A stretch of DNA of 64,000 nt from an uncultured Bacteroidia bacterium (lineage in GTDB: Bacteria > Bacteroidota > Bacteroidia > JAIBAJ01). Both the position numbers and the translations under genes were made by a program. The stretch is taken from the NCBI GenBank assembly GCA_965284645.1, contig OZ260106.1, positions 2,815,747 to 2,879,746 of the forward strand, given 5' to 3'. The notes under the pieces were generated by a model. It was not told the DNA's origin. It saw nothing but the letters and a program-made list of their open reading frames with translations, and searched no databases. Positions 5,801 to 64,000 of this stretch are shown in pieces (positions within the stretch are counted from its first letter, which is position 1; the number at the start of each line of letters is the position of its first letter).

Positions 5801-6152
5801 AATAAAAATGTGGCGGGCCCTTTTCGCCCAAAACCATTAGCACTTTATATTAGCTGAACTGCCAGGCGAAAAGGCCGGGCTATTCGCTGCAAATCCTCGC
5901 GCCTTTCGCTTACGCTCAGGCCGCTGTGGGTTTTCCGCTGCTATCCCTGCCCGGAAACAGCGTGCGGATACTTGGGTTTTAGTGGTTTAAACCCAGATTT
6001 TGCATTAGAAATCCATAAACGATTAACCCGTTGTAAATCAATTTGTATGGCCCAATTGATAAAAACTGCTATCCCGAAATTTCTTTGGGAGGGTAAACCC
6101 AACTAAATCAAGTAGTTCGGATTAATAATTCCTCCTATTGATTTGGGTTAAA
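5801..6152. repeat. Mosaic interspersed repeat locus 1: module B (minus, 5801-5957) + module A (plus, 5987-6152)
   Basis: B core ...GGCGAAAAGGCCGGGCTATTCGCTGCAAATCCTC...CTGTGGGTTTTCCGCTGCTATCCCTGCCCGG is the reverse complement of the B copy at 44352-44485. A copy begins TTAAACCCAGATTTTGCATTAGAAAT and ends ATTGATTTGGGTTAAA. Confidence 0.85.
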
Positions 6153-6432
6153 TGGAGAGATGATGAAAGTGGTTATATAACTGTTTTGTGGAAGAAAGAA
6201 GAAGGAAATAGGAGATGATAAACTTATTTTGGAGTTCCAAATAGCTCACCTAAATATACCTATTGGGGTATAAAGAAATGGTATTTTATTTTTTCTTTGG
6301 GAAGTATTTGGAAATTACCTACTCCTATTTTTGAAGGCAGATTTGGTAAAAAGAAATTTAATGGCAACTAGATGTAATTTAGAGGTCATTGAAAGACGAC
6401 TCACATAAATCACAATTAATGACATAGAATTA

Positions 6433-8359: not shown

Positions 8360-8968
8360 TTGCAAAGTATTGAAAAGCAAATAGAAAAGGTCATTAAAAG
8401 CAAACCAAGAGGTTCATTGGTGTTACCTGCTGATTTTTTGCTCTATGGAACATCAAAGGCTGTTCAAAAATCATTAGAACGCTTGGAAGAAAAGCAAGTG
8501 ATTGTTCGAGTAGCGCATGGTATTTATGTACGTCCAAAAATAAGTAAGCTAATTGGGCCACTTACCCCCTCAGCGGAAGAAGTTGCGGAGGCTATTGCCA
8601 AGCGAGACAGGATACGCACTGTACCTACAGGTAGTTATGCTTTGAATGCATTAGGGTTGAGTACTCAAGTGCCGATGAATATTGTGCTACTTACTGATGG
8701 TTCACCTCGAGAAATAAAAGTAGGCAAACGAACCATAAAATTTAAGAAAACCACACCTAAAAACCTGTTGGCAAAAGGCAAAATAAGTCGCTTGGTAATT
8801 CAAGCCCTTAAAGAGATAGGCAATGGGAAAGTAACAGAAGATGAAGAAATAAAAATATTGGATATACTTAAAAAGGAAAACGAAAAAAAACTAAAAAACG
8901 ACATTGCTCTTACACCTGTGTGGATTCAAAAAATAATGAATAAAGCATTGATCATTGGCAAAGATTGA
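8360..8968 (+). CDS. AbiEi-family type IV toxin-antitoxin antitoxin / transcriptional regulator
   Basis: TTG start. About 200 aa with an N-terminal winged-HTH-like segment (GSLVLPADFLLYGTSKAVQKSLERLEEKQVIVRVAHGIYV). Sits immediately upstream of, and overlapping, an AbiEii nucleotidyltransferase gene. Confidence 0.7.
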   Translation: MQSIEKQIEKVIKSKPRGSLVLPADFLLYGTSKAVQKSLERLEEKQVIVRVAHGIYVRPKISKLIGPLTPSAEEVAEAIAKRDRIRTVPTGSYALNALGLSTQVPMNIVLLTDGSPREIKVGKRTIKFKKTTPKNLLAKGKISRLVIQALKEIGNGKVTEDEEIKILDILKKENEKKLKNDIALTPVWIQKIMNKALIIGKD

Positions 8969-9998
8969 TTTTTACCAAATAGATAAGGCCGAAAAAGCAG
9001 CCATCTTTACAGAGATTGCTACCCAAAAGGGAATGAATCCTTTTGCAGTAGAGAAAGACTGGTGGGTAAGCCGAACCTTAGAAATTATCTTTCAAATGCC
9101 CATTGCAGAGCATTTAGTTTTTAAAGGCGGTACATCATTAAGTAAGGCGTGGAAACTCATCAATCGATTTTCAGAAGATATTGATTTAGCTATTGATAAG
9201 GAGTATTTTGGATTTAAGGGAGAGTTAGGAAAGAATCAAAGAGATAAACTCAGAAAAACAGCAGGTGCTTATACTACCGGAACTTTCTTTGAAGAGTTAA
9301 AGAAGAGCTTTGAAGGGAAAGGATTTAAGGATTTAAAATTTGTAGTGATTGAAGCCAAAGACAGCGACCAAGATCCAAGAGTATTAGAGATTTACTATCC
9401 CAACATCATCAAAGCGAAATCAGAATATCTCTTACCAAGAGTGCAGATTGAAGTTAGTTGCCGTTCTTTAAGAGAACCCTTTACTGCAAAGTCTTTTGGG
9501 GCATTGGTAGATGAATTTTATCCTGATAAAAATTTTGCTGAAAAGCTATTTGAAGTTCCAACCGTAAATGCAGAGCGTACATTTTTGGAAAAAATATTCT
9601 TGTTACATGAAGAATTTCAGCGTCCGATTGAAAAAATGCGAGTAGACAGATTAAGCCGCCATTTGTACGATGTTTATCAATTGGCAAAAGCAGGAATTGC
9701 TGAAAAAGCAATCAACGATAAAGAACTTTACGAAACCATTGTAGCACATAGATACAAATTTTCAAGAGTTGGCGAAGTGGATTATAACAAACATAACCCT
9801 AAAACAATAAATCCTATTCCCAAAGAAATAGTAATTGCAGATTGGGAAGAAGATTACACCAAAATGAAAGAAGCTATGATATACGGTGAGAACAAGCCAA
9901 GTTTTAAGGATTTGATAATCAATTTAATGGAATTAATTGAACAACTGCAAGTCGTTGAATGGCCTTTTCAACTTGAATTTCCTATTCCTAATTCTTAA
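8955..9998 (+). CDS. AbiEii/AbiGii-family nucleotidyltransferase toxin (DUF1814)
   Basis: Diagnostic motifs EKDWWVSRTLE ... LVFKGGTSLSKAWKLINRFSEDIDLAID (GS-x10-DxD nucleotidyltransferase). 14-bp overlap with the upstream antitoxin gene. Confidence 0.85.
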   Translation: MAKIDFYQIDKAEKAAIFTEIATQKGMNPFAVEKDWWVSRTLEIIFQMPIAEHLVFKGGTSLSKAWKLINRFSEDIDLAIDKEYFGFKGELGKNQRDKLRKTAGAYTTGTFFEELKKSFEGKGFKDLKFVVIEAKDSDQDPRVLEIYYPNIIKAKSEYLLPRVQIEVSCRSLREPFTAKSFGALVDEFYPDKNFAEKLFEVPTVNAERTFLEKIFLLHEEFQRPIEKMRVDRLSRHLYDVYQLAKAGIAEKAINDKELYETIVAHRYKFSRVGEVDYNKHNPKTINPIPKEIVIADWEEDYTKMKEAMIYGENKPSFKDLIINLMELIEQLQVVEWPFQLEFPIPNS

Positions 9999-10086
9999 TT
10001 GAAAATTCGAAATTGACTATGACAGATAACAGGATAATACAAGATTAGACCGTTGTGAAAGCTAAAAATGGAGATTTATGATTTTT

Positions 10087-10428
10087 TTAACCCTGATTGC
10101 GCATTAGCATTTCATAAACGAATAATCAGTTGTAAATCAACTTGTTTATCCAAATTGATAACCACAATTATCCCGAAATTTCTTCGAGAGGGAAAAACCC
10201 ACTAAAACAAGTAGTTTGAATTAATAATCCTCCAATGGATTAATTTTGGTTAAAGCACCCCGGGCAACGATAGGAACGGAAAGCCCACAGGCCAGACGTA
10301 GCGCTAGCGAAGACTGGCCGAGGACTTGCAGTGGATAGCGTGGCCCTACCGCCCATGCAGCAAACTAAAGTTCCAGGTAGACTGCGGTATTGGCGGTAGG
10401 GAGCCCGCCTAAAAAGAAAAAATGAGAA
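10087..10428. repeat. Mosaic repeat locus 2: module A (plus, 10087-10255) + module B (plus, 10256-10428)
   Basis: A: TTAACCCTGATTGCGCATTAGCATTTCATAAACG...TTAATTTTGGTTAAAG. B: CCCGGGCAACGATAGGAACGGAAAGCCCACAGG-[GGCCAGACGTAGCGCTAGCGAAGACTGGCC hairpin]-GAGGACTTGCAGTGGATAGCGTGGCCC...GGCGGTAGGGAGCCCGCC-A-rich tail. Confidence 0.85.
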
Positions 10429-10468
10429 AGTTTTTAAAGCTTATTTAGGTGCTAGGGCAAGAGTTGGA

Positions 10469-11146
10469 TTAATCCTCCAATAAATCAGGTCGCCTAGTTT
10501 TGGTGCGCTCCAAGGACTGTTCGTGCCGCCATTCGTCAATCTTTTTTTGGTGCCCACTGAGCAATACATCGGGTACTTTCATGCCTTCGAAATCGGCTGG
10601 ACGGGTGTAAACGGGAGGGGCCAACAAATTATCCTGAAATGAATCGCTTAGGGCCGAGGTTTCGTCGCCAATGGAGCCAGGTATGAGCCTTATGATGCTG
10701 TCGCACAACACGGCAGCTGCCAATTCGCCTCCGCTTAAAACGTAGTCGCCAATGGAAATCTCTAGTGTAACGTATTTCTCCCTGATTCGCTGGTCGATGC
10801 CTTTGTAATGCCCACAAATAAAGAGCAGGTTGCTTAAGGTGGAAAGTCGGTTGGCCACAGCCTGGTTGTGTGTAATGCCGTCGGGGGTAAGGAAAATGAT
10901 TTCGTCGTAGCTTCTTTGCTTTTTCAATGCCTCAATGCAATTGGACAAAGGAAGGGGCATCAAAACCATACCAGCTCCGCCACCAAAAGGATAATCGTCG
11001 ACCTGGCGGTGTTTGTAAGGAGTGTAGTCGCGGAGCTGGTGCACCTGAATTTCCACTATGCCTTTTTCGCGCGCACGTTTAACAATACTGTGCCCAAAAG
11101 GACTTTCCAGTAGTTCGGGTAAAACCGTAATTATATCGATTCTCAT
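10469..11146 (-). CDS. trmD: tRNA (guanine37-N1)-methyltransferase
   Basis: [11 protein letters not shown]...; SPOUT-fold TrmD motifs ([31 protein letters not shown]). Confidence 0.9.
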
Positions 11147-11162
11147 TCCTTTGGGGGAGGAA

Positions 11163-12191
11163 CTAAGCTACGGTCCAGGTGTTTTTTCCACGCAATAAGG
11201 CATCCAAATCGCCTTCGCCTTTGGCCTTTGCTTCTTCCAACTGCTGTTCCATGGCCTCTTCGTAAGTAAAGCGATTTTCGGTATAAAACACACCAAACGG
11301 ACGAGGTAAATGGCCTTCGGTAGCCGGATTATCGAAGAAACGGGTTAAAATTGAAGCCTTTACTCGGTCGGTTTCGTCGTGAATCCATAAATCGTTCAAG
11401 GAATTTCCTTCCAGTTCAACGATAACAGGTTTAAAACCATCCAATTTGATTCCTTTGTTTTTATTGGCCCCGAAAACCAAGGGTTGTCCATGCTCTACAA
11501 ACAAGGTTTCTTCAGCTTTTGATGATTTTTCGGTAAATACTTCAAAGGCTCCGTCGTTGAACACATTGCAGTTTTGGTAAATCTCCAACATAGAAGTGCC
11601 TTTGTGCTGGTGGGCACGCTTTAACATGGTACGCAAATGGATGGGATCGCGATCCATGCTGCGGGCCACAAAAGTAGCATCAGCTCCCATGCACAAGGCC
11701 AAAGGGTTAAAGGGATGATCGATGGCGCCCATCGGAGAAGATTTGGTGATTTTTCCTTTTTCGGAAGTAGGGGAGTATTGTCCTTTTGTTAACCCGTAAA
11801 TTTGGTTATTGAACAAAAGCACATTCACATCGAAGTTGCGGCGAAGCATGTGGATAAGGTGGTTGCCACCAATGGAAAGTGCATCACCATCGCCGGTTAC
11901 AAGCCACACACTGAGGTCGGGACGAGCCCCTTTCAAACCGCTTGCAATGGCCGTGGCTCTTCCGTGAATACTGTGCATACCAAAAGTTTCCATGTAATAG
12001 GGGAAACGGCTTGAGCATCCGATACCTGAAACGAAGACCAATTTTTCTTTAGGAATTCCCAGTTCAGGAATTACTGTTTGAACTTGTTTGAGGATAGAAT
12101 AATCGCCGCAGCCCGGGCACCAACGCACATCTTGGTCGGTAACCAGTTCTTTGGAGGTATAGGCTATAGGGTTGTTTGTAGTTTCAGACAT
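11163..12191 (-). CDS. korB: 2-oxoglutarate/2-oxoacid:ferredoxin oxidoreductase beta subunit (TPP-binding)
   Basis: WCPGCGDY Cys motif. TPP-binding GDGD...N region. Adjacent to the alpha subunit gene. Confidence 0.85.
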
Positions 12192-12202
12192 AGTAAATAC
12201 GT

Positions 12203-14056
12203 TTAGTTGGCCAATACTTCGTCAATTTTTTCCTTGATTTCTTTGGTCGTAAAAGGAATACCTTTGATTTTGTTGAAACCTTCGGCAGGTACGAGGTATT
12301 TATCACGAATGATGCGCACCAATTGACCGTTGTTCATTTCTGGCACGATGATTTTATCGAAATTCTTCAAAATTTCTCCTAAGTTTTTAGGCAAAGGATT
12401 AAGGTATTTGATATGGATATGGGAAACTGAAAGACCTTCGTTCAGGGCTTGTTTTACAGCAGCGGTGATGGAACCATAGGTGCTTCCCCAACCAATGATC
12501 AACAATTTGCCTTTTTCAGGTCCGTTGTCGATGCTTTGCAAAGGCACGTAATCGGCTATTTTATCCACTTTGGCCTGGCGCATTTTCACCATAAATTCGT
12601 GGTTAGCCGGGTCGTAGCTGATATTACCAGTTTCATGTTCCTTTTCGAGTCCGCCGATGCGGTGTTCCAAACCTTTGGTGCCCGGAATAGCCCACTCGCG
12701 GCCTAATTTCTCGTTGCGTTTGTAAGGAAGAAACTTACCATCGGCTGTTTTTGAATCGATGGTGGCAAAAACAGGTTTAATTTTTGGTAAATCTGCTGCC
12801 TTCGGGAATTTCCATGGCTCGGCACCATTGGCAATATATCCATCGGAAAGGAAGAAAACAGGTAACATGTGCTCCACAGCAATTCGAGCTGCTTCGATAA
12901 TGGTATCGAAACAATCGGAAGGTGATTTGGCTGCGATTACTGCCACGGGTGATTCCCCGTTACGACCATAAATGGCTTGCATTAAATCCGCTTGTTCCGT
13001 TTTAGTGGGCAATCCGGTGGAAGGTCCACCCCGTTGCACATTGATCAAAAGCAAGGGTAATTCCAACATCAAGGCCAAACCAATGGCTTCACCTTTAAGG
13101 GCAATACCTGGTCCGGAAGAAGATGTAACCCCCAAGGTTCCGCCGAAACTAGCTCCGATGGCTGAGGCTACGGCAGCAATTTCGTCCTCGGCTTGGAAGG
13201 TTTTGATATTGAAGTTTTTGTACTTAGATAGTTCGTGTAAAATGTCGGAAGCAGGTGTAATAGGGTAGGTGCCAAAAAACAGTTGCAAACCCGATAGTTT
13301 CGAGGCTGCAATCAAACCGAGTGCGGTTGCCTGGTTACCCATAATGTTGCGGTATTCCCCAGGTTCCATGGTAGCCTTCTCCACTTGGTAGCGTGTCATA
13401 AAGGTTTCGCTGGTTTCACCGAAGTGGTATCCTGCTTTCAACACTTTGGTATTGGCCTCAACAATTTCAGGTTTTTTCTTGAACTGTTCTTTTACATAGT
13501 TGATACTGTAATCTAGCGGGCGGTTGTACATCCACAAAATAAATCCGAGGACGAACATGTTCTTGGTTCGGTCAATTTCCTTGGTACCCAAACCGCTATC
13601 TGCCAAGGCAGCCTTGGTCATTTTGGTAATATCCAGCTTAAAAACCTTGTAGTTATCTAAGGAACCATCGTCCAAAGGAGTAGCACCATCAGGGTATTTC
13701 GCTAATTTAAGGTTTTTGGGGTCGAAACCATCGATGTTTGCGATGATTATTCCACCTTTTTTAAGTTGTTTTAAGTTGGCCTTTAAAGCTGCGGCATTCA
13801 TCACTACCAATACATCGCAATCGTCGCCTGGTGTGTAAATTTCTTCACTCCCGAAATGAAGCTGGAAGCCCGAAACACCAGCTAATGTTCCTTGCGGGGC
13901 ACGTATTTCGGCAGGGAAATTTGGGAAAGTACTTAAATCGTTGCCAAAAAGGGCATTTGTATTGGTAAACTGGGTTCCTGTTAATTGAATTCCATCTCCA
14001 CTATCACCGGCAAAAAGTATGGTGACATCCTTCTTAATTTCTGTTGTTTTGTTCAT
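12203..14056 (-). CDS. korA: 2-oxoglutarate/2-oxoacid:ferredoxin oxidoreductase alpha subunit
   Basis: 617 aa. Pyruvate-flavodoxin/ferredoxin oxidoreductase domains I/II. Directly upstream of korB. Confidence 0.85.
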   Translation of the reverse strand: MNKTTEIKKDVTILFAGDSGDGIQLTGTQFTNTNALFGNDLSTFPNFPAEIRAPQGTLAGVSGFQLHFGSEEIYTPGDDCDVLVVMNAAALKANLKQLKKGGIIIANIDGFDPKNLKLAKYPDGATPLDDGSLDNYKVFKLDITKMTKAALADSGLGTKEIDRTKNMFVLGFILWMYNRPLDYSINYVKEQFKKKPEIVEANTKVLKAGYHFGETSETFMTRYQVEKATMEPGEYRNIMGNQATALGLIAASKLSGLQLFFGTYPITPASDILHELSKYKNFNIKTFQAEDEIAAVASAIGASFGGTLGVTSSSGPGIALKGEAIGLALMLELPLLLINVQRGGPSTGLPTKTEQADLMQAIYGRNGESPVAVIAAKSPSDCFDTIIEAARIAVEHMLPVFFLSDGYIANGAEPWKFPKAADLPKIKPVFATIDSKTADGKFLPYKRNEKLGREWAIPGTKGLEHRIGGLEKEHETGNISYDPANHEFMVKMRQAKVDKIADYVPLQSIDNGPEKGKLLIIGWGSTYGSITAAVKQALNEGLSVSHIHIKYLNPLPKNLGEILKNFDKIIVPEMNNGQLVRIIRDKYLVPAEGFNKIKGIPFTTKEIKEKIDEVLAN

Positions 14057-18968: not shown

Positions 18969-19066
18969 GAAGATTTGAACCTTGGTCTCTAAGGTGTTTT
19001 GTTGGTAAAAAGGCTAAATTGTTGAATGGTAATAATTGCATCCAAGCTTAAAGTCTGTGCTTCTTT

Positions 19067-19213
19067 CCGGGTAGGGATAGGAACGGAAAGCCCACAGGGA
19101 TGCGGAGGAACGGAGCAGACCGAGGACTTGCAGTGTATAGCCCGACCATGAGCCATGCACCAAAGTTTAAAACAAAGGAGAATGTGAAAAGGCGAATGGG
19201 ACCCGCCAAATAA
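19067..19213 (+). repeat. Mosaic repeat locus 3: solitary module B (plus)
   Basis: CCGGGTAGGGATAGGAACGGAAAGCCCACAGGG...CGAGGACTTGCAGTGTATAGCCCGACC...GGCGAATGGGACCCGCCAAATAAG. Confidence 0.8.
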
Positions 19214-19340
19214 GTATTAAAATTATATTCTTTAAGGGTTGAGGAAGGAGCCAAGGTTTCGATTTTATTCAAGCAAATTTGTTTATAAATTCAGGGCTAG
19301 GAACCCTGTTTGAAATGGGATAACTCTTTAATTTTACGGC

Positions 19341-25607: not shown

Positions 25608-25764
25608 TTTTTTATTTTTTGGCGGGCACCATTCGCAAAAACAGGTTCGTCATTAAATTAAAATTTGGCAAGGCGAATGGTCGGGCTATACGCTGCAAGT
25701 CCTCGTCCAGTCTACGTTTCACTTCGTCTGTCCTGTGGGCTTTACGCTTCTATCCCTTCCCGGA
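25608..25764 (-). repeat. Mosaic repeat locus 4: solitary module B (minus)
   Basis: TTTTTTATTTTTGGCGGGCACCATTCGC...GGCGAATGGTCGGGCTATACGCTGCAAGTCCTCG...CCTGTGGGCTTTACGCTTCTATCCCTTCCCGG. Confidence 0.8.
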
Positions 25765-37249: not shown

Positions 37250-37706
37250 TAAACCCAGATTACGCATTAGAAATACATAAACGATTAACCAGTTGTAAAT
37301 CAATTTGGATGGCCAAATTGATAACAACTGCTATCCCGAAATTTCTTCGGGAGGGGTAAACCCAACTAAATCAAGTAGTTCGGATTTTTAAATCCTCCTA
37401 TTGATTAATTTGGGATAAAAAAGGGTATGCATGATTTATCAATGAAGGGAATTTGAATAGGACCAGCCCTATTTTGGGGGAAGCCCTTAGAAGAAGCCAA
37501 AATTGAAATGCAAAACTAAAATACTTCGCCAACAACCGGGCACGAAGACCAATCGGGCAGGGATAGCAGTGGAAAGCCCGCAAACCAGCCGTAGCGCAGC
37601 AAGCTGGTTGAGGACTTGGAACGAATAGCCCGACCATTCGCCCAGCACAACTATTAAATCTGGGTAGAATGGAGCTGGCGAATGGGGCCCGCCAAATAAA
37701 AAAAAG
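37250..37706 (+). repeat. Mosaic repeat locus 5: module A (plus, 37250-37418) + 135-bp spacer + module B (plus, 37554-37706)
   Basis: A: AAACCCAGATTACGCATTAGAAATACATAAACG...TTGATTAATTTGGGATAAAA. B: CGGGCAGGGATAGCAGTGGAAAGCCCGC-[AACCAGCCGTAGCGCAGCAAGCTGGTT hairpin]-GAGGACTTGGAACGAATAGCCCGACCATTCGCC...GGCGAATGGGGCCCGCCAAATAAAAAAAAG. Confidence 0.85.
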
Positions 37707-37820
37707 AAGGGTTAAAGTCTCGTTTAAGCATCGGGGTACAATTTGGATTTGCATTCAAAATTTCCATAATCCAGCCTTGGGTATCGAATCGGGAGGGGAA
37801 AAGTTTACCTTTGTCCTGCA

Positions 37821-40890: not shown

Positions 40891-41392
40891 GCCACAAAAA
40901 TAAGAGGCTTACCGGCAATCTGCTAATAATTTTATTGGACCGCTATAAAATTGTCATTTCCTTGAAAAACAGTCTTTTGGAAATTTTCATTTTCCTTAGT
41001 GTGGACAATGAATTGGAAAAGTTGAACTTGAAATATGTTTCAATTTGTTCCTAGCGTTGGGAAGAGGGAAGTTGAAAACTTAAGCGAAGGTCCTGAAAAT
41101 TAAATTTCAATCCCGTTTAGGCTTTAGAAAAAGTGTAATGTTTTGAATTGGAATTTAAATAATGATTTCAGGGTTTAGTCTGTATAGCTGAATTATAAAT
41201 TATAGAATAGGATATGGGAATGGATTCATTTGAGGTGAAGCGGTGCGGTTTGTCTTTTCTAACACGTCTAGATTTCGCCCGTCTGGTGCGCAAGGTGATT
41301 GCTAGTTGTATTTAAATCTATGCCCCTGCTGCAACTAAAGGTGCTAAGAAAGTTAAGTTATTTCAGGTTTATTTTACTCTCAAATTTATCCA

Positions 41393-41545
41393 TGGGAGGA
41401 TTTATTAATCCGATTGGTCTGATATAGCTGGGTTGCATCTTTTGGAGTATTTTGGGATAGCAGTTGGGTTTCATAAAGACATACAGATTGCAAAACAACT
41501 GGACCATTGTTAAAGCCTTAGAAATACGTAACCTGGGTTCAAAAA
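41393..41545 (-). repeat. Mosaic repeat locus 6: degenerate module A (minus) in the 5' leader region of the cysteine desulfurase gene
   Basis: GGGAGGATTTATTAATCCGA...GGGATAGCAGTTGGG...ACAACTGG...CCTTAGAAATACGTAACCTGGGTT aligns with block-wise identity to A(-) at 43972-44150. Confidence 0.55.
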
Positions 41546-43635: not shown

Positions 43636-44560
43636 CATTTCTATTTTCTATTTTCTATTTTCTAATTTCTCATTTTTTCCCCAATTTTTAATTTTTAATT
43701 CGCTAATTTTTAATTTATTAGGCGGGCTCCCTTTCGCCCAAATACAGCTTTTTCCTTTGAAACAATTTATTCTGCTAGGGCTCAAGGGCCACGCTATCGC
43801 CCATACTCCTCGGTCTGCTCCGTTCCTCCGCAGCCCTGTGGGGTATTTGGCTCTATCGTTGCCCGGACCCTTGCCTAAGTTTTGGTGGGTGGAAAAAAGT
43901 TTTGGAGCTGCTTGGGCTGGGGTGATTTTGGGGGCAGAGCCAGTAAGTGAATTTACCGAAAAATACTTCTTAAACCCAAATTAATCAATAGGAGGATTTA
44001 TTAATCCGAACTACTTGATTTAGTTGGGTTTACCCCTCCCGAAGAAATTTCGGGATAGCAGTTGTTATCAATTTGGCCATACAAATGGATTTACAACTGG
44101 TTAATCGTTTATGCATTTCTAATGCGTAATCTGGGTTAAACCCAAATTCAGCATTAGAAATCTATTACAGCTTCCAACTGCTTCAAATACAAGGATTTCA
44201 GAACAATTTTTGACTTCAAAATAGTTTACTATTCCTTCACCCAAAAATTAACCTGAAACCCTCGTCTTTATTGCATTTGAAAGCTTCATTTCGATTTCTA
44301 ATGCGTAATCTGGGTTTAAACCACCAAAACCCAAGTACCAGCACGCACTTTCCGGGCAGGGATAGCAGCGGAAAACCCACAGCGGCCTGAGCGTAAGCGA
44401 AAGGCGCGAGGATTTGCAGCGAATAGCCCGACCTGAACGCCACTTGCACCATGCTTGGACTCAGGGAAAAGTTTTTGTGGCGGAAGGGCACGCATAAGTA
44501 ATTAAAAATTAGGGAATTAAAAATTAAGAATTAGAAAAGAGAAGAGAGAAAAGAGTTTCT
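43636..44560. repeat. Mosaic repeat locus 7: ~0.9-kb imperfect palindromic assembly bounded by ~70-bp AT-rich inverted repeats (IR-L, B-, A-, A fragments, B+, IR-R)
   Basis: IR-L, 43636-43712: tandem heptamers CTATTTT x3-4, then TAATTTTTAATTCGCTAATTTTTAATTTATTA. B(-) at 43712-43870 and A(-) at 43972-44150. A-terminus fragments at 44157-44172 and 44294-44322. B(+) at 44352-44485. IR-R, 44490-44560: AATTAAAAATTAGGGAATTAAAAATTAAGAATTAGAAAAGAGAAGAGAG is the reverse-complement counterpart of IR-L. Confidence 0.8.
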
Positions 44561-57530: not shown

Positions 57531-57680
57531 GAGGGAAGGTTATTGTTGTATAGGATGATTATTTTGCGAGCTCCTTTTTGTCTTTGGTTAACAGCCATAC
57601 TTCCGAATTAGGGCTAGGTAAAAGGGGCAGCTTTAAGAATCCAAATACTGGAACCTCTTACGCTTTAATGGTGAGAATAA

Positions 57681-57830
57681 GCATTAGATATCCTTTAGAA
57701 CTTAACCTTTTGTAAATCAATTTGTTTTGTCAAATTGACTTACAAATGCTATCCTGAAATGCTCGAGGAGGTGTCCAGCTAAATCAAGTAATTCAGATTA
57801 AAAGTCCTCCTTTTGATTAAATTGAGTTTA
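57681..57830 (+). repeat. Mosaic repeat locus 9: module A (plus), left terminus missing
   Basis: GCATTAGATATCCTTTAGAACTTAACCTTTTGTAAATCAATTTGTTTTGTCAAATTGA...AAATCAAGTAATTCAGATTAAAAGTCCTCCTTTTGATTAAATTGAGTTTAAAGG. Confidence 0.7.
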
Positions 57831-62286: not shown

Positions 62287-62556
62287 CATTTCTAATGACT
62301 CATTTGGGTGATTTCAAACTGCTTATTTTTTTATTTGGCGGGCTCCATTTTGCCCAAAACATTTGCCTAAATTTTAAGCAGTCTACCAGGCAAAATGGCC
62401 ACGCTTTCGGCGGTAGTCCTCGGTCTGTGAAGGGCTAGGCCATTAATACTTTCTTAGGGTTTAACCAAATAAATTACCTGACTGCTTTTAATAGAAAATA
62501 GGCCTAGCCCTTCACATCCCTGTGGGCTACACTGCCTCTATCGTTGCCCGAGACCC
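62287..62556 (-). repeat. Mosaic repeat locus 10: A-terminus fragment (62287-62310) + module B (minus, 62323-62556) with expanded central hairpin
   Basis: TTTTTTTATTTGGCGGGCTCCATTTTGCCC...GTCCTCGGTCT-[GTGAAGGGCTAGGCC ... 59 nt ... GGCCTAGCCCTTCAC]-ATCCCTGTGGGCTACACTGCCTCTATCGTTGCCCG. A 15-bp perfect inverted repeat replaces the short variable hairpin of the other B copies. Confidence 0.8.
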
Positions 62557-63467: not shown

Positions 63468-63653
63468 GTCGTATTTTGGACGAAAATAGTAGAAAAAAAA
63501 TAATACCGAATAGACATTATGTATAGTCCAATAGTAGGCTTACATTTTCTAGAAAAGATTTGACTATCAAACTGTATCCCCGGCATTTACCATTCTAATT
63601 TTACAAATATCCTTAGGACGATTTTTAAATTAAAAATGGTATAAAAGGTTTAT

Positions 63654-64000
63654 TTAACCCAGATTACGCATTAGAAATGCATAAACGATTAACCAGTTGT
63701 AAATCAATTTTTATAGCCAAATTGATAACAACTGCTATCCCAAAATTCCTTAGGGAGGGGTAAACCCAACTAAATCAAGTAGTTCGGATTAATAAATCCT
63801 CCTATTGATTAATTTGGGTTTAATGGCAAAATGGTTTTGCTGGCACTTCACTTCCCGGGCAGGGATAGCAGTGGAAAGCCCACAGGACCGCCGTGACCCG
63901 AACCCTTTCGGGTTACAGCGGGGCGAGGACTTGGAACGGATAGCCCGGTGCTTTCGCCCCTTGCTAAAGCCAAGATTAATAGCAAAAAGGTTTTGGGCGA
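63654..64000 (+). repeat. Mosaic repeat locus 11: module A (plus, 63654-63824) + module B (plus, 63854-window end, truncated by window)
   Basis: A: TTAACCCAGATTACGCATTAGAAATGCATAAACGATTAACCAGTTGTAAATCAATT...TTGATTAATTTGGGTTTAATGG. B: CCCGGGCAGGGATAGCAGTGGAAAGCCCACAGG-[CCGCCGTGACCCGAACCCTTTCGGGTTACAGCGGGG nested hairpin]-GAGGACTTGGAACGGATAGCCCGG... Confidence 0.85.

Follow-up and report, generated by a model that had tools for sequence, protein, structure and literature searches.

A repeat with a variable hairpin in an uncultured Bacteroidia bacterium is very probably a divergent, three-way-junction form of the Flavo-1 element

The 64,000-nucleotide stretch analysed here (contig OZ260106.1 of GenBank assembly GCA_965284645.1, an uncultured Bacteroidia bacterium; hereafter the window) carries nine copies of a repeat, module B, in which a hairpin that changes from copy to copy is held between conserved cores. 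Our analysis indicates with high confidence that module B is a divergent subfamily of Flavo-1 (Rfam family RF01705), a structured element of Bacteroidota. The Flavo-1 motif is already known; what is new is a larger, locally hyper-abundant variant with a fuller architecture. As the best explanation overall, to which we give a probability of about one half, we propose that the element acts as one folded strand; that it is, in particular, an amplifying single-strand (probably DNA) element resembling repetitive extragenic palindromes (REPs), with its hairpins serving as spacer stems, falls slightly short of an even chance.

The first-pass annotation of this DNA had described four hairpins of module B, and all four lie exactly where it placed them: GGCCAG-N18-CTGGCC at 10290-10319, AACCAGC-N13-GCTGGTT at 37583-37609, a nested CCGC...GCGG hairpin at 63888-63921 and a perfect 15-bp inverted repeat with arms at 62427-62441 and 62501-62515. 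Each is flanked by ...GGAAAGCCCRCA(G) on one side and by (C)GAGGAYTTG on the other, and the window has 7 occurrences of a 12-mer of the core where 0.8 would be expected. A covariance model (R1) raises the number of copies from the four noticed at first to nine, five of them on the + strand (starting at 10258, 19065, 37551, 44350 and 63853) and four on the - strand (5956, 25765, the degenerate 43868 and 62553, which bears an insertion). The description of the central segment as a different sequence in every copy was nearly right, the nine copies carrying seven hairpin types, with the hairpin identical between copies 5956 and 44350 and nearly so between 19065 and 43868. Alignment of the copies shows a unit of ~150 nt in which the hairpin is not an isolated feature. 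The earlier observation is thus confirmed and extended in copy number, architecture and family; what it had missed is the known family Flavo-1 and the mutual pairing of the two ends of the element.

The complete unit is a three-way junction, running in the order 5'-YYY, stem P1 (5 bp), A, stem P2 with the variable hairpin, G, stem P3, the closing strand P1' and the tail CCAAAU-3'. P2 is built of GGG, A.G, UA, a GNA.GNA loop, GY-RC, a GGA.GNA loop, AAG-CUU, CC-GG and an asymmetric CRCA loop, and the hairpin first noticed is the apical, variable-length stem of this long interrupted Flavo-1 helix. A "terminal GGCG..CGCC hairpin" had also been reported; it is not a local structure and consists of the 3' strands of P3 and P1. 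Its GGCGAATGG pairs with CCATTCGCC ~45 nt upstream to give P3, a long second hairpin with ACCATTCGCC and GGCGAATGG as its strands, and GCCCG pairs with CGGGC at the 5' end of the element to give P1. The compensatory differences seen there are real, but they belong to the P1 and P3 pairings. Copies outside the window are organized as a 5-nt strand (mostly GCGTG or GCGTT), A, GGGATAG..GGAAAGCCCRCAG and the variable segment, followed by CGAGGACTTG..ATAGCCCG, a further hairpin, a 5-nt strand complementary to the first (CACGC or AACGC; the pairs GCGCA/TGCGC, CGGCC/GGCCG and GCGGC/GCCGC also occur) and the tail CCAAAU. The tail is conserved at C 100% (by construction), C 84%, A 75%, A 76% and A 84%. 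Copies lying within any one genome (examples being L006, L052 and L057) share the tail and the type of P1 and differ in the sequence just outside; since they diverge immediately there, the unit spans P1 to the tail. This complete architecture of outer stem, second hairpin and 3' tail defines the true ends of the unit.

Several tests bear on the pairing itself. An alignment of 44 short copies from 44 loci, made with MAFFT and fitted to no structure, is 96.7% paired under the proposed structure, against 87.3% in column shuffles and 22-45% with slid partners. Changes on both sides are found in 13 of its 22 pairs, a number reached by 0 of 500 shuffles, and all five P1 pairs covary. RNAalifold arrived independently at the same fold of P1, P2, variable hairpin and P3, and the unconstrained minimum free energy (MFE) fold of each full-length window copy is the same three-way junction. 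Within the core, a G/A alternation (AAAG/AAAA) is mirrored by C/T in ACUU/AUUU. For the variable segment, 85 distinct sequences from ~100 loci among the matches listed were compared with chimeras joining the 5' half of one segment to the 3' half of another: the ends pair in the MFE fold of 44 (52%) as against 80 of 594 chimeras (13%), with an MFE per nucleotide of -0.262 versus -0.121. The segment thus differs in sequence and length among other Bacteroidota copies while its pairing is kept. Folding energy alone would not flag the copies, whose whole-copy z-scores range from -0.0 to -2.9 (-6.6 for the copy with the insertion), because much of P2 is non-canonical. Covariation, the chimera control and the strand asymmetry described below agree in placing the pairing of the variable stem under constraint in one strand.

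The assignment to Flavo-1 was not obtained by a routine scan, since the window has no Rfam match at the gathering threshold. With E-value thresholds, seven window copies match RF01705 over its full length (model positions 1-76) at 27.8-38.1 bits (E from 1.5e-4 to 0.1 when the entire window is scanned), below the gathering score of 42 bits. They reproduce the Flavo-1 consensus structure, with its interrupted helix, GAUAG, GGA and GNA loops and variable apical stem. The relationship was followed further across Flavobacterium species at a single orthologous locus, situated downstream of a UbiA-like gene. There, L093 and L081 carry the window-type distal core (R1 scores of 104 and 99 bits) and give no Rfam match at E <= 0.01, and L212 and L216 carry Flavo-1 at 45.5 and 42.6 bits, above the gathering score. 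All four share alignable flanks, P1 GCGTG/CACGC, basal P2 and a CCCAAA tail; the distal arm of P2 and P3 are entirely different. Because both types occupy one orthologous locus, the window type is Flavo-1 with a variant distal core, and because both carry P1, P3 and the tail there, these are likely features of the whole family. By the same comparison, replacement of hairpin modules takes place even at a fixed locus. Three further genomes (L210, L213 and L214) lack the element at this locus, their spacer being unrelated or unalignable; the protein of L210 is the closest, at 91% identity. The distal-core variant missed by the Rfam threshold accounts for nearly all of the ~100 copies retrieved with the window core pattern. 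Flavo-1 was inferred computationally as likely RNA, not cis-regulatory, in Bacteroidetes and a few Spirochaetes (Weinberg et al. 2010, Genome Biol 11:R31), is filed by Rfam as "Gene; sRNA" and ranks among the most abundant Rfam small RNA (sRNA) families, with no function given (PMC9029176); the literature found assigns it none.

The nine window copies are as follows (scores are for R1 and for the Rfam Flavo-1 model).

Copy 1, 10261-10413, + strand: R1 49.6 bits, Rfam 29.6 bits; P1 10261-10265 (CGGGC) with 10403-10407 (GCCCG); P2a is ACG/CGT, a covarying variant; variable hairpin 10290-10319; P3 ~10344-10402; tail CCTAAA; three-way junction in the unconstrained MFE fold.

Copy 2, 19068-19211, + strand: R1 58.2 bits, Rfam 33.6 bits; three-way junction in the MFE fold; P1 CGGGT/ACCCG, compensatory relative to other copies; variable hairpin 19097-19121; tail CCAAAT; also present on a strain-variant contig (L121).

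Copy 3, 37554-37697, + strand: R1 73.1 bits, the alignment to the model taking in P1 and P3; Rfam 38.1 bits, E = 5.8e-7 in a local scan; P1 CGGGC/GCCCG; variable hairpin 37583-37609; P3 ACCATTCGCC...GGCGAATGG; tail CCAAAT.

Copy 4, 44353-44498, + strand: R1 58.5 bits, Rfam 34.9 bits; variable hairpin 44382-44407, exactly as in copy 6; P1 presumably closes with GCACG (44488-44492) as its 3' strand, leaving a G-A mismatch in the centre, and the MFE fold pairs differently; contig L054 shows the same CGGGC...GCACG arrangement.

Copy 5, 63856-64000, + strand: R1 57.9 bits, Rfam 27.8 bits; variable hairpin 63885-63924, enclosing the nested hairpin at 63888-63921; P3 is cut by the end of the window.

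Copy 6, 5808-5953, - strand: R1 60.2 bits, Rfam 32.1 bits; three-way junction in the MFE fold; P1 5953-5949 with 5818-5814; variable hairpin 5924-5899; tail CCACAT.

Copy 7, 25617-25762, - strand: R1 58.3 bits, Rfam 30.1 bits; three-way junction in the MFE fold; P1 CGGGA with GCCC(G); variable hairpin 25733-25705; P3 ACCATTCGCC...GCGAATGGT; tail CCAAAA.

Copy 8, 43717-43865, - strand: R1 25.2 bits, E = 8e-4; core degenerate, the MFE fold keeping P1, P2, variable hairpin and P3; variable hairpin close to that of copy 2.

Copy 9, 62333-62550, - strand: R1 18.3 bits; MFE fold z = -6.6; P1 62550-62546 with 62343-62339; variable arm lengthened by the 15-bp inverted repeat, which encloses an A+T-rich loop of 59 nt.

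Identity of the 41-nt 5' core among copies of the window genome is 63-80%. Copies 6 and 4 (starts 5956 on the - strand and 44350 on the + strand) share, over 5899-5975 and 44335-44407, the hairpin and ~45 nt of 5' flank, including a GGGTTTAAACC...AAAACCC hairpin and part of a second repeat described below (module A), and differ in P3 and the 3' ends, a pattern that indicates recombinant or mosaic origin. The loop of copy 9 (62442-62500) contains GGGTTTAACCAAAT, which resembles the terminal motif of module A, and may therefore be the footprint of another repeat inserted at the hairpin tip. Insertions of 57-130 nt in the variable arm were also found elsewhere (L019:6175-6330, L084:141-300, L043, L097 and L098:6466-6331), those of L019 and L084 being mutually homologous; extension or insertion seems to recur in the apical stem. 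Open reading frames (ORFs) of 74-118 aa overlap three of the window copies, all on the - strand (19048-19272, 37398-37754 and 44237-44491), and are most likely artefacts of the G+C-rich repeat; gene callers may record these ORFs as hypothetical proteins.

There is good evidence that the element works in one strand. At the GY/RC pair (columns 22 and 163 of a covariance-model alignment, A2) the intermediate U-G occurs 11 times and C-A not once, and the variable hairpin folds better in the sense than in the antisense strand in 48 cases versus 17. The triloop c(GNA)g is found 39 times in the variable hairpin against 11.9 +/- 3.5 expected and 25 times in P3 against 9.8 +/- 3.0, its complement being depleted in the variable hairpin (1 versus 6). 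GCGNAGC makes up the entire variable segment in ~14 loci among the matches listed, and short P3 hairpins of the form CCC-GNA-GGG occur in 12 of 73 (1.2 expected). RNA characteristically has GNRA and UNCG loops; no enrichment of c(GNRA)g or c(UNCG)g was seen. GCGNAGC is the consensus of an "extraordinarily stable mini-hairpin DNA" melting at 70-76 C, as against 39 C for the RNA hairpin r(GCGAAAGC) compared in the same review (PMC13037366; see also PMC3201870).

Transcription signals are missing from the same picture. The copies are almost always intergenic and are spread evenly over the four gene contexts (17 between convergent genes, >E<; 16 >E>; 15 <E<; and 15 between divergent genes, <E>), and these equal frequencies led us to reject a cis-regulatory element. 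No promoter motif was found in a fixed register upstream, where only pyrimidines at -1 to -3 stand out, and terminators are not in excess downstream (7 of 81 copies versus 9-15 in controls), on which grounds a dedicated sRNA gene was rejected as well. Because transcription signals are missing and the c(GNA)g loops are of the DNA type, we lean, not decisively, to folding as single-stranded DNA; the framing of the first-pass annotation, "RNA or single-stranded DNA", is still the right one.

A scan for the 5' core pattern, taking one genome per species, retrieved at least 116 loci; the taxa among the matches listed are nearly all Bacteroidota (Flavobacteriales, Cytophagales, Chitinophagales and Sphingobacteriales), the others being three contigs of one metagenome-assembled genome (MAG) labelled Spirochaetales and two probable chance matches. 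The core loops are conserved across the four Bacteroidota orders. Por_Secre_tail sorting domains are typical of Bacteroidota, and window proteins carry them. In the window the density is 9 copies per 64 kb, ~1 per 7 kb, and it is 3 per 9.9 kb in L117, a metagenome contig of the same organism; by comparison, unselected Bacteroidota contigs around parE homologues hold 1 copy in 1.14 Mb, and the ascertained loci ~8 extra copies in 0.7 Mb. All window copies have a P1 of the lineage-specific type CGGGC/GCCCG together with a long P3, and such P1 and P3 subtypes are genome-specific, the "Spirochaetales" MAG and a Cyclobacteriaceae MAG each having their own. The former (Gx481_bin132; L020, L087 and L098) has seven copies in 18.5 kb, with P1 GCGCC or GCGCA and an unusual P3, GTTTTTTTGCCCGC...GCGGGCAAAAAAA, and constitutes a second hyper-abundant lineage, possibly mis-binned or possibly truly outside Bacteroidota. 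Seven of eight pattern matches in IMG/VR are genuine, some of them on viral or prophage contigs; one (L126) has three copies at an ordinary Mu-like prophage end.

These observations can be accommodated in one proposal. The element would act as a single folded strand, whose invariant internal loops and junction would be read by a conserved, putative partner. The two variable hairpins would need only to pair, as spacers or stabilisers, and their sequence and length would be free because only pairing is required. In the window organism the element would have amplified selfishly as a REP-like interspersed repeat and would fold as single-stranded DNA, for instance while the DNA is replicated or transposed; an alternative within the same proposal is an RNA processed out of read-through transcripts. 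The density of ~1 copy per 7 kb, the independence of orientation, the missing transcription signals and the DNA-type loops together suggest repeat-like proliferation and possibly action as single-stranded DNA. It is tempting to go further and to regard Flavo-1 as a whole as a phylum-wide, strand-specific, REP-like single-stranded DNA three-way junction, d(GNA)-capped, read by a putative conserved Bacteroidota enzyme, amplifying lineage by lineage and swapping modules at fixed loci, a generalization that we consider rather doubtful.

A number of findings weigh against this proposal. No partner enzyme is encoded in the window, where Pfam scans of all 54 ORFs revealed no transposase, HUH enzyme (Y1_Tnp), integrase, OrfB/TnpB or RuvC-like transposon protein. 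Neither a target-site duplication nor a clean empty site was seen: P1 can be read as the 5-bp terminal inverted repeat of a miniature inverted-repeat transposable element (MITE), but the tail CCAAAU is asymmetric, no direct repeat flanks the copies, and no empty site could be aligned, the closest metagenome ParE relatives being only 74% identical. Exact-protein look-ups for presence or absence among strains gave only contigs 98-99.9% identical to the window, which carry the copies too; further look-ups yielded no match. With 63-80% core identity the copies are old and divergent, unlike those of a recent burst. Strand asymmetry is modest overall (39 G-U versus 27 A-C) and absent from P1, and orientation is weakly linked to GC skew (t = 2.3, 41 of 69 positive). 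Finally, the elements persist at orthologous sites across Flavobacterium species, which, together with loop conservation in four orders, would fit a host-functional RNA equally well, and the motif was judged a probable RNA when first described (Weinberg et al. 2010).

A structured non-coding RNA is the strongest competitor, one that we hold to be possible although clearly short of even odds. The transcript would be made or processed at the P1 and CCA boundaries, its GA-rich loops would bind a conserved protein or RNA, and the variable hairpins would be ordinary variable-length stems. Strong covariation with stems of varying length, the high conservation of the internal loops across four orders, the 11-to-0 preference for the U-G intermediate and the retention of copies at orthologous loci are all expected of such a molecule; the sharp conservation boundaries, with a stem and a CCA end, loosely recall a tRNA acceptor, and the original classification of the motif points the same way. 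What tells against it is the lack of any orientation bias relative to genes, of a fixed-register promoter motif and of a terminator excess, together with the enrichment of c(GNA)g triloops rather than of GNRA or UNCG loops. The ~100-fold gap in density between lineages and the genome-specific P1 and P3 would be unusual for a family of sRNA genes, and the sole transcriptome comment found, on F. psychrophilum, places Flavo-1 "indistinctly in sense or antisense" of transcribed regions, with many copies outside them (PMC9723704).

A self-cleaving, catalytic or processing RNA scattered between genes, by analogy with hammerhead or twister, would account for a three-way junction with invariant nucleotides in its internal loops and junction strands, for the optional peripheral stems, for scattered copies indifferent to orientation and for the few copies on viral or prophage contigs. 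We regard it as improbable: the element matches no known ribozyme family, Rfam offering nothing beyond Flavo-1 itself and Xist_exon1, the latter at E = 0.046 and almost certainly by chance, and neither transcription signals nor GNRA or UNCG enrichment accompany it. Readings of the loops and of the CCA tail as a K-turn, a sarcin-ricin motif or a tRNA-like end were also tried by inspection, and none fits the consensus.

That pairing arises as a mutational by-product, template switching or hairpin-templated repair creating inverted repeats in one step, is more improbable still. Perfect Watson-Crick inverted repeats of at least 6 bp are present in 26 of 79 variable segments, only 6.4% of the pairs in folds of the variable hairpin are G-U, the inverted repeat at 62427-62515 is perfect over 15 bp and whole hairpin modules differ between orthologous copies, all of which speak for such a process. 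It cannot explain covarying stems of 2-5 bp (P1, P2a and P2c) whose strands lie 60-140 nt apart, the phylum-wide conservation of unpaired loops, or the bias for c(GNA)g over its complement and for UG (11) over CA (0). Template switching may nonetheless contribute to the renewal of the two variable hairpins.

Equally hard to sustain are the specific systems that the first-pass annotation had named as analogies, namely integron attC sites, IS200/IS605 ends, TnpB guide RNAs and REPs served by REP-associated tyrosine transposases (RAYTs), considered here together with the ends of palindrome-associated transposable elements (PATEs) and IscB guide RNAs, the REPs being taken in their canonical form. 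Its reading of selection on single-strand structure survives our analysis; its analogies do not, and for the window they are largely refuted. They do draw on real features: conserved flanks around a variable stem fit their architecture, the element is intergenic and of high copy number, and some published REPs contain GNA mini-hairpins (PMC6006769, Table S1). For attC, the R''(RYYYAAC)...R'(GTTRRRY) boxes were not found, the ends of the element being variable P1 strands followed by CCAAAU; instead of a cassette array in one orientation, five copies on the + and four on the - strand stand in random orientation among housekeeping genes, and the window holds no integrase. As to IS200/IS605 ends and TnpB guide RNAs, TnpA, TnpB and IscB domains are all absent from the 54 ORFs of the window. 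For REPs, no 5' GT[AG]G foot stands at a 20-40-nt hairpin, the element being a three-way junction of 95-215 nt, and the window has no RAYT gene. One candidate was the RAYT subclass 2.6, specific to Bacteroidetes and described as flanked by "atypical secondary structures" that recur at other places in the genome (PMC6006769); it was rejected, its listed REPs being unrelated simple hairpins, 24-35 nt long, on a foot of GCTAG or GCTGG (PMC6006769). The ORFs enclosed by inverted pairs of elements at L105 and L020 look by eye MORN-like and RNase II-like, not transposase-like.

The surroundings of the copies offered some further observations. Directly upstream of a copy of module A and of copy 1, at 8360-9998, lies a pair of genes for DUF6088 and AbiEii nucleotidyltransferase proteins, predicted to form an abortive-infection or type IV toxin-antitoxin module. 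Contig L117 is 99.1% identical to window positions 9139-12792, diverges beyond the AbiEii gene and continues there with IS630-type ORFs, helix-turn-helix and DDE_3, and two further Flavo-1-like copies; a strain-level rearrangement adjoins copy 1 here. Between the gene pair and copy 1 stands one of the copies of module A, a ~168-nt repeat without Rfam match whose copies are 65-93% identical and contain an internal inverted repeat, TAAACCCAACTAAATCAA/TTGATTAATTTGGGTTTA:

5990-6157, + strand: module A.

10089-10256, + strand: module A, immediately before copy 1.

37252-37419, + strand: module A.

63656-63823, + strand: module A.

43970-44140, - strand: module A.

41374-41434, - strand: module A.

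57674-57738: module A, partial copy.

Five of these seven lie 0-210 nt from a Flavo-1-like copy, in both relative orientations; module A may be a MITE, or both repeats may merely accumulate in the same permissive spacers. A further stretch of 148 nt (63497-63644) is 86% identical to positions 1854-2001 of L054, a Sediminibacterium MAG contig that also carries a Flavo-1-like copy of the window subtype and whose flanking genes show no synteny to the window. This similarity points to a putative third repeat family found across genera, and hints that the window may come from a relative of Chitinophagaceae.

Should the reading as a REP-like single-stranded DNA element hold, Flavo-1 would be a structured DNA element of a new kind, mobile or domesticated, and not an RNA gene; many features now annotated as "sRNA" in Bacteroidota genomes would carry the wrong label, and there would be a partner enzyme to find. 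Should it fail, module B would still stand as an orphan RNA structure of unusual size and good support.

Set beside known systems, module B shares with attC sites the conserved boxes flanking a centre that varies in sequence and length, and strand-specific folding, and differs in having neither R''/L''-L'/R' boxes nor arrays adjacent to intI. With the DNA mini-hairpins d(GCGNAGC) it shares its shortest variable segments, which are exactly GCGNAGC, and a 2.5- to 3-fold excess of c(GNA)g confined to one strand. Those hairpins occur singly in phage or plasmid origins or promoters, as single-strand initiation sites and promoters of the N4 virion RNA polymerase (PMC13037366), whereas the GNA hairpins of module B only cap a larger structure and most window copies have longer, different caps. 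The likeness to REPs, bacterial interspersed mosaic elements (BIMEs) and REP doublets (REPINs) is in genomic behaviour: these too are of high copy number, strictly intergenic, found in either orientation, divided into genome-specific subtypes, made of imperfect palindromes thought to fold single-stranded and clustered with other repeats (here module A) in mosaic intergenic regions. Module B differs from them in lacking the GT[AG]G foot, in being larger and branched (95-215 nt), in a core conserved across the phylum where REPs are species-specific, and in having no linked RAYT. From Flavo-1 as modelled in Rfam, the window type departs in its distal core, where AAAGCCCRCAG...CGAGGACUU and an asymmetric loop replace the A/U-rich helix auCCUUUuu...aaAAAGau, and in a density in the window genome ~100 times that of the comparison sample; the Rfam model, for its part, leaves 8 nt per side unpaired and omits P1, P3 and the CCAAAU tail. 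The agreement is nevertheless extensive: the succession GGG / A / UA / GNA / GY / GGA on the 5' side and GNA / RC / GNA / UA / G / CCC on the 3' side, an apical stem of variable length, multiple copies that are not cis-regulatory, a range covering Bacteroidota plus one MAG labelled Spirochaetales, and a window-type core interchangeable with gathering-level copies of Flavo-1 at an orthologous locus.

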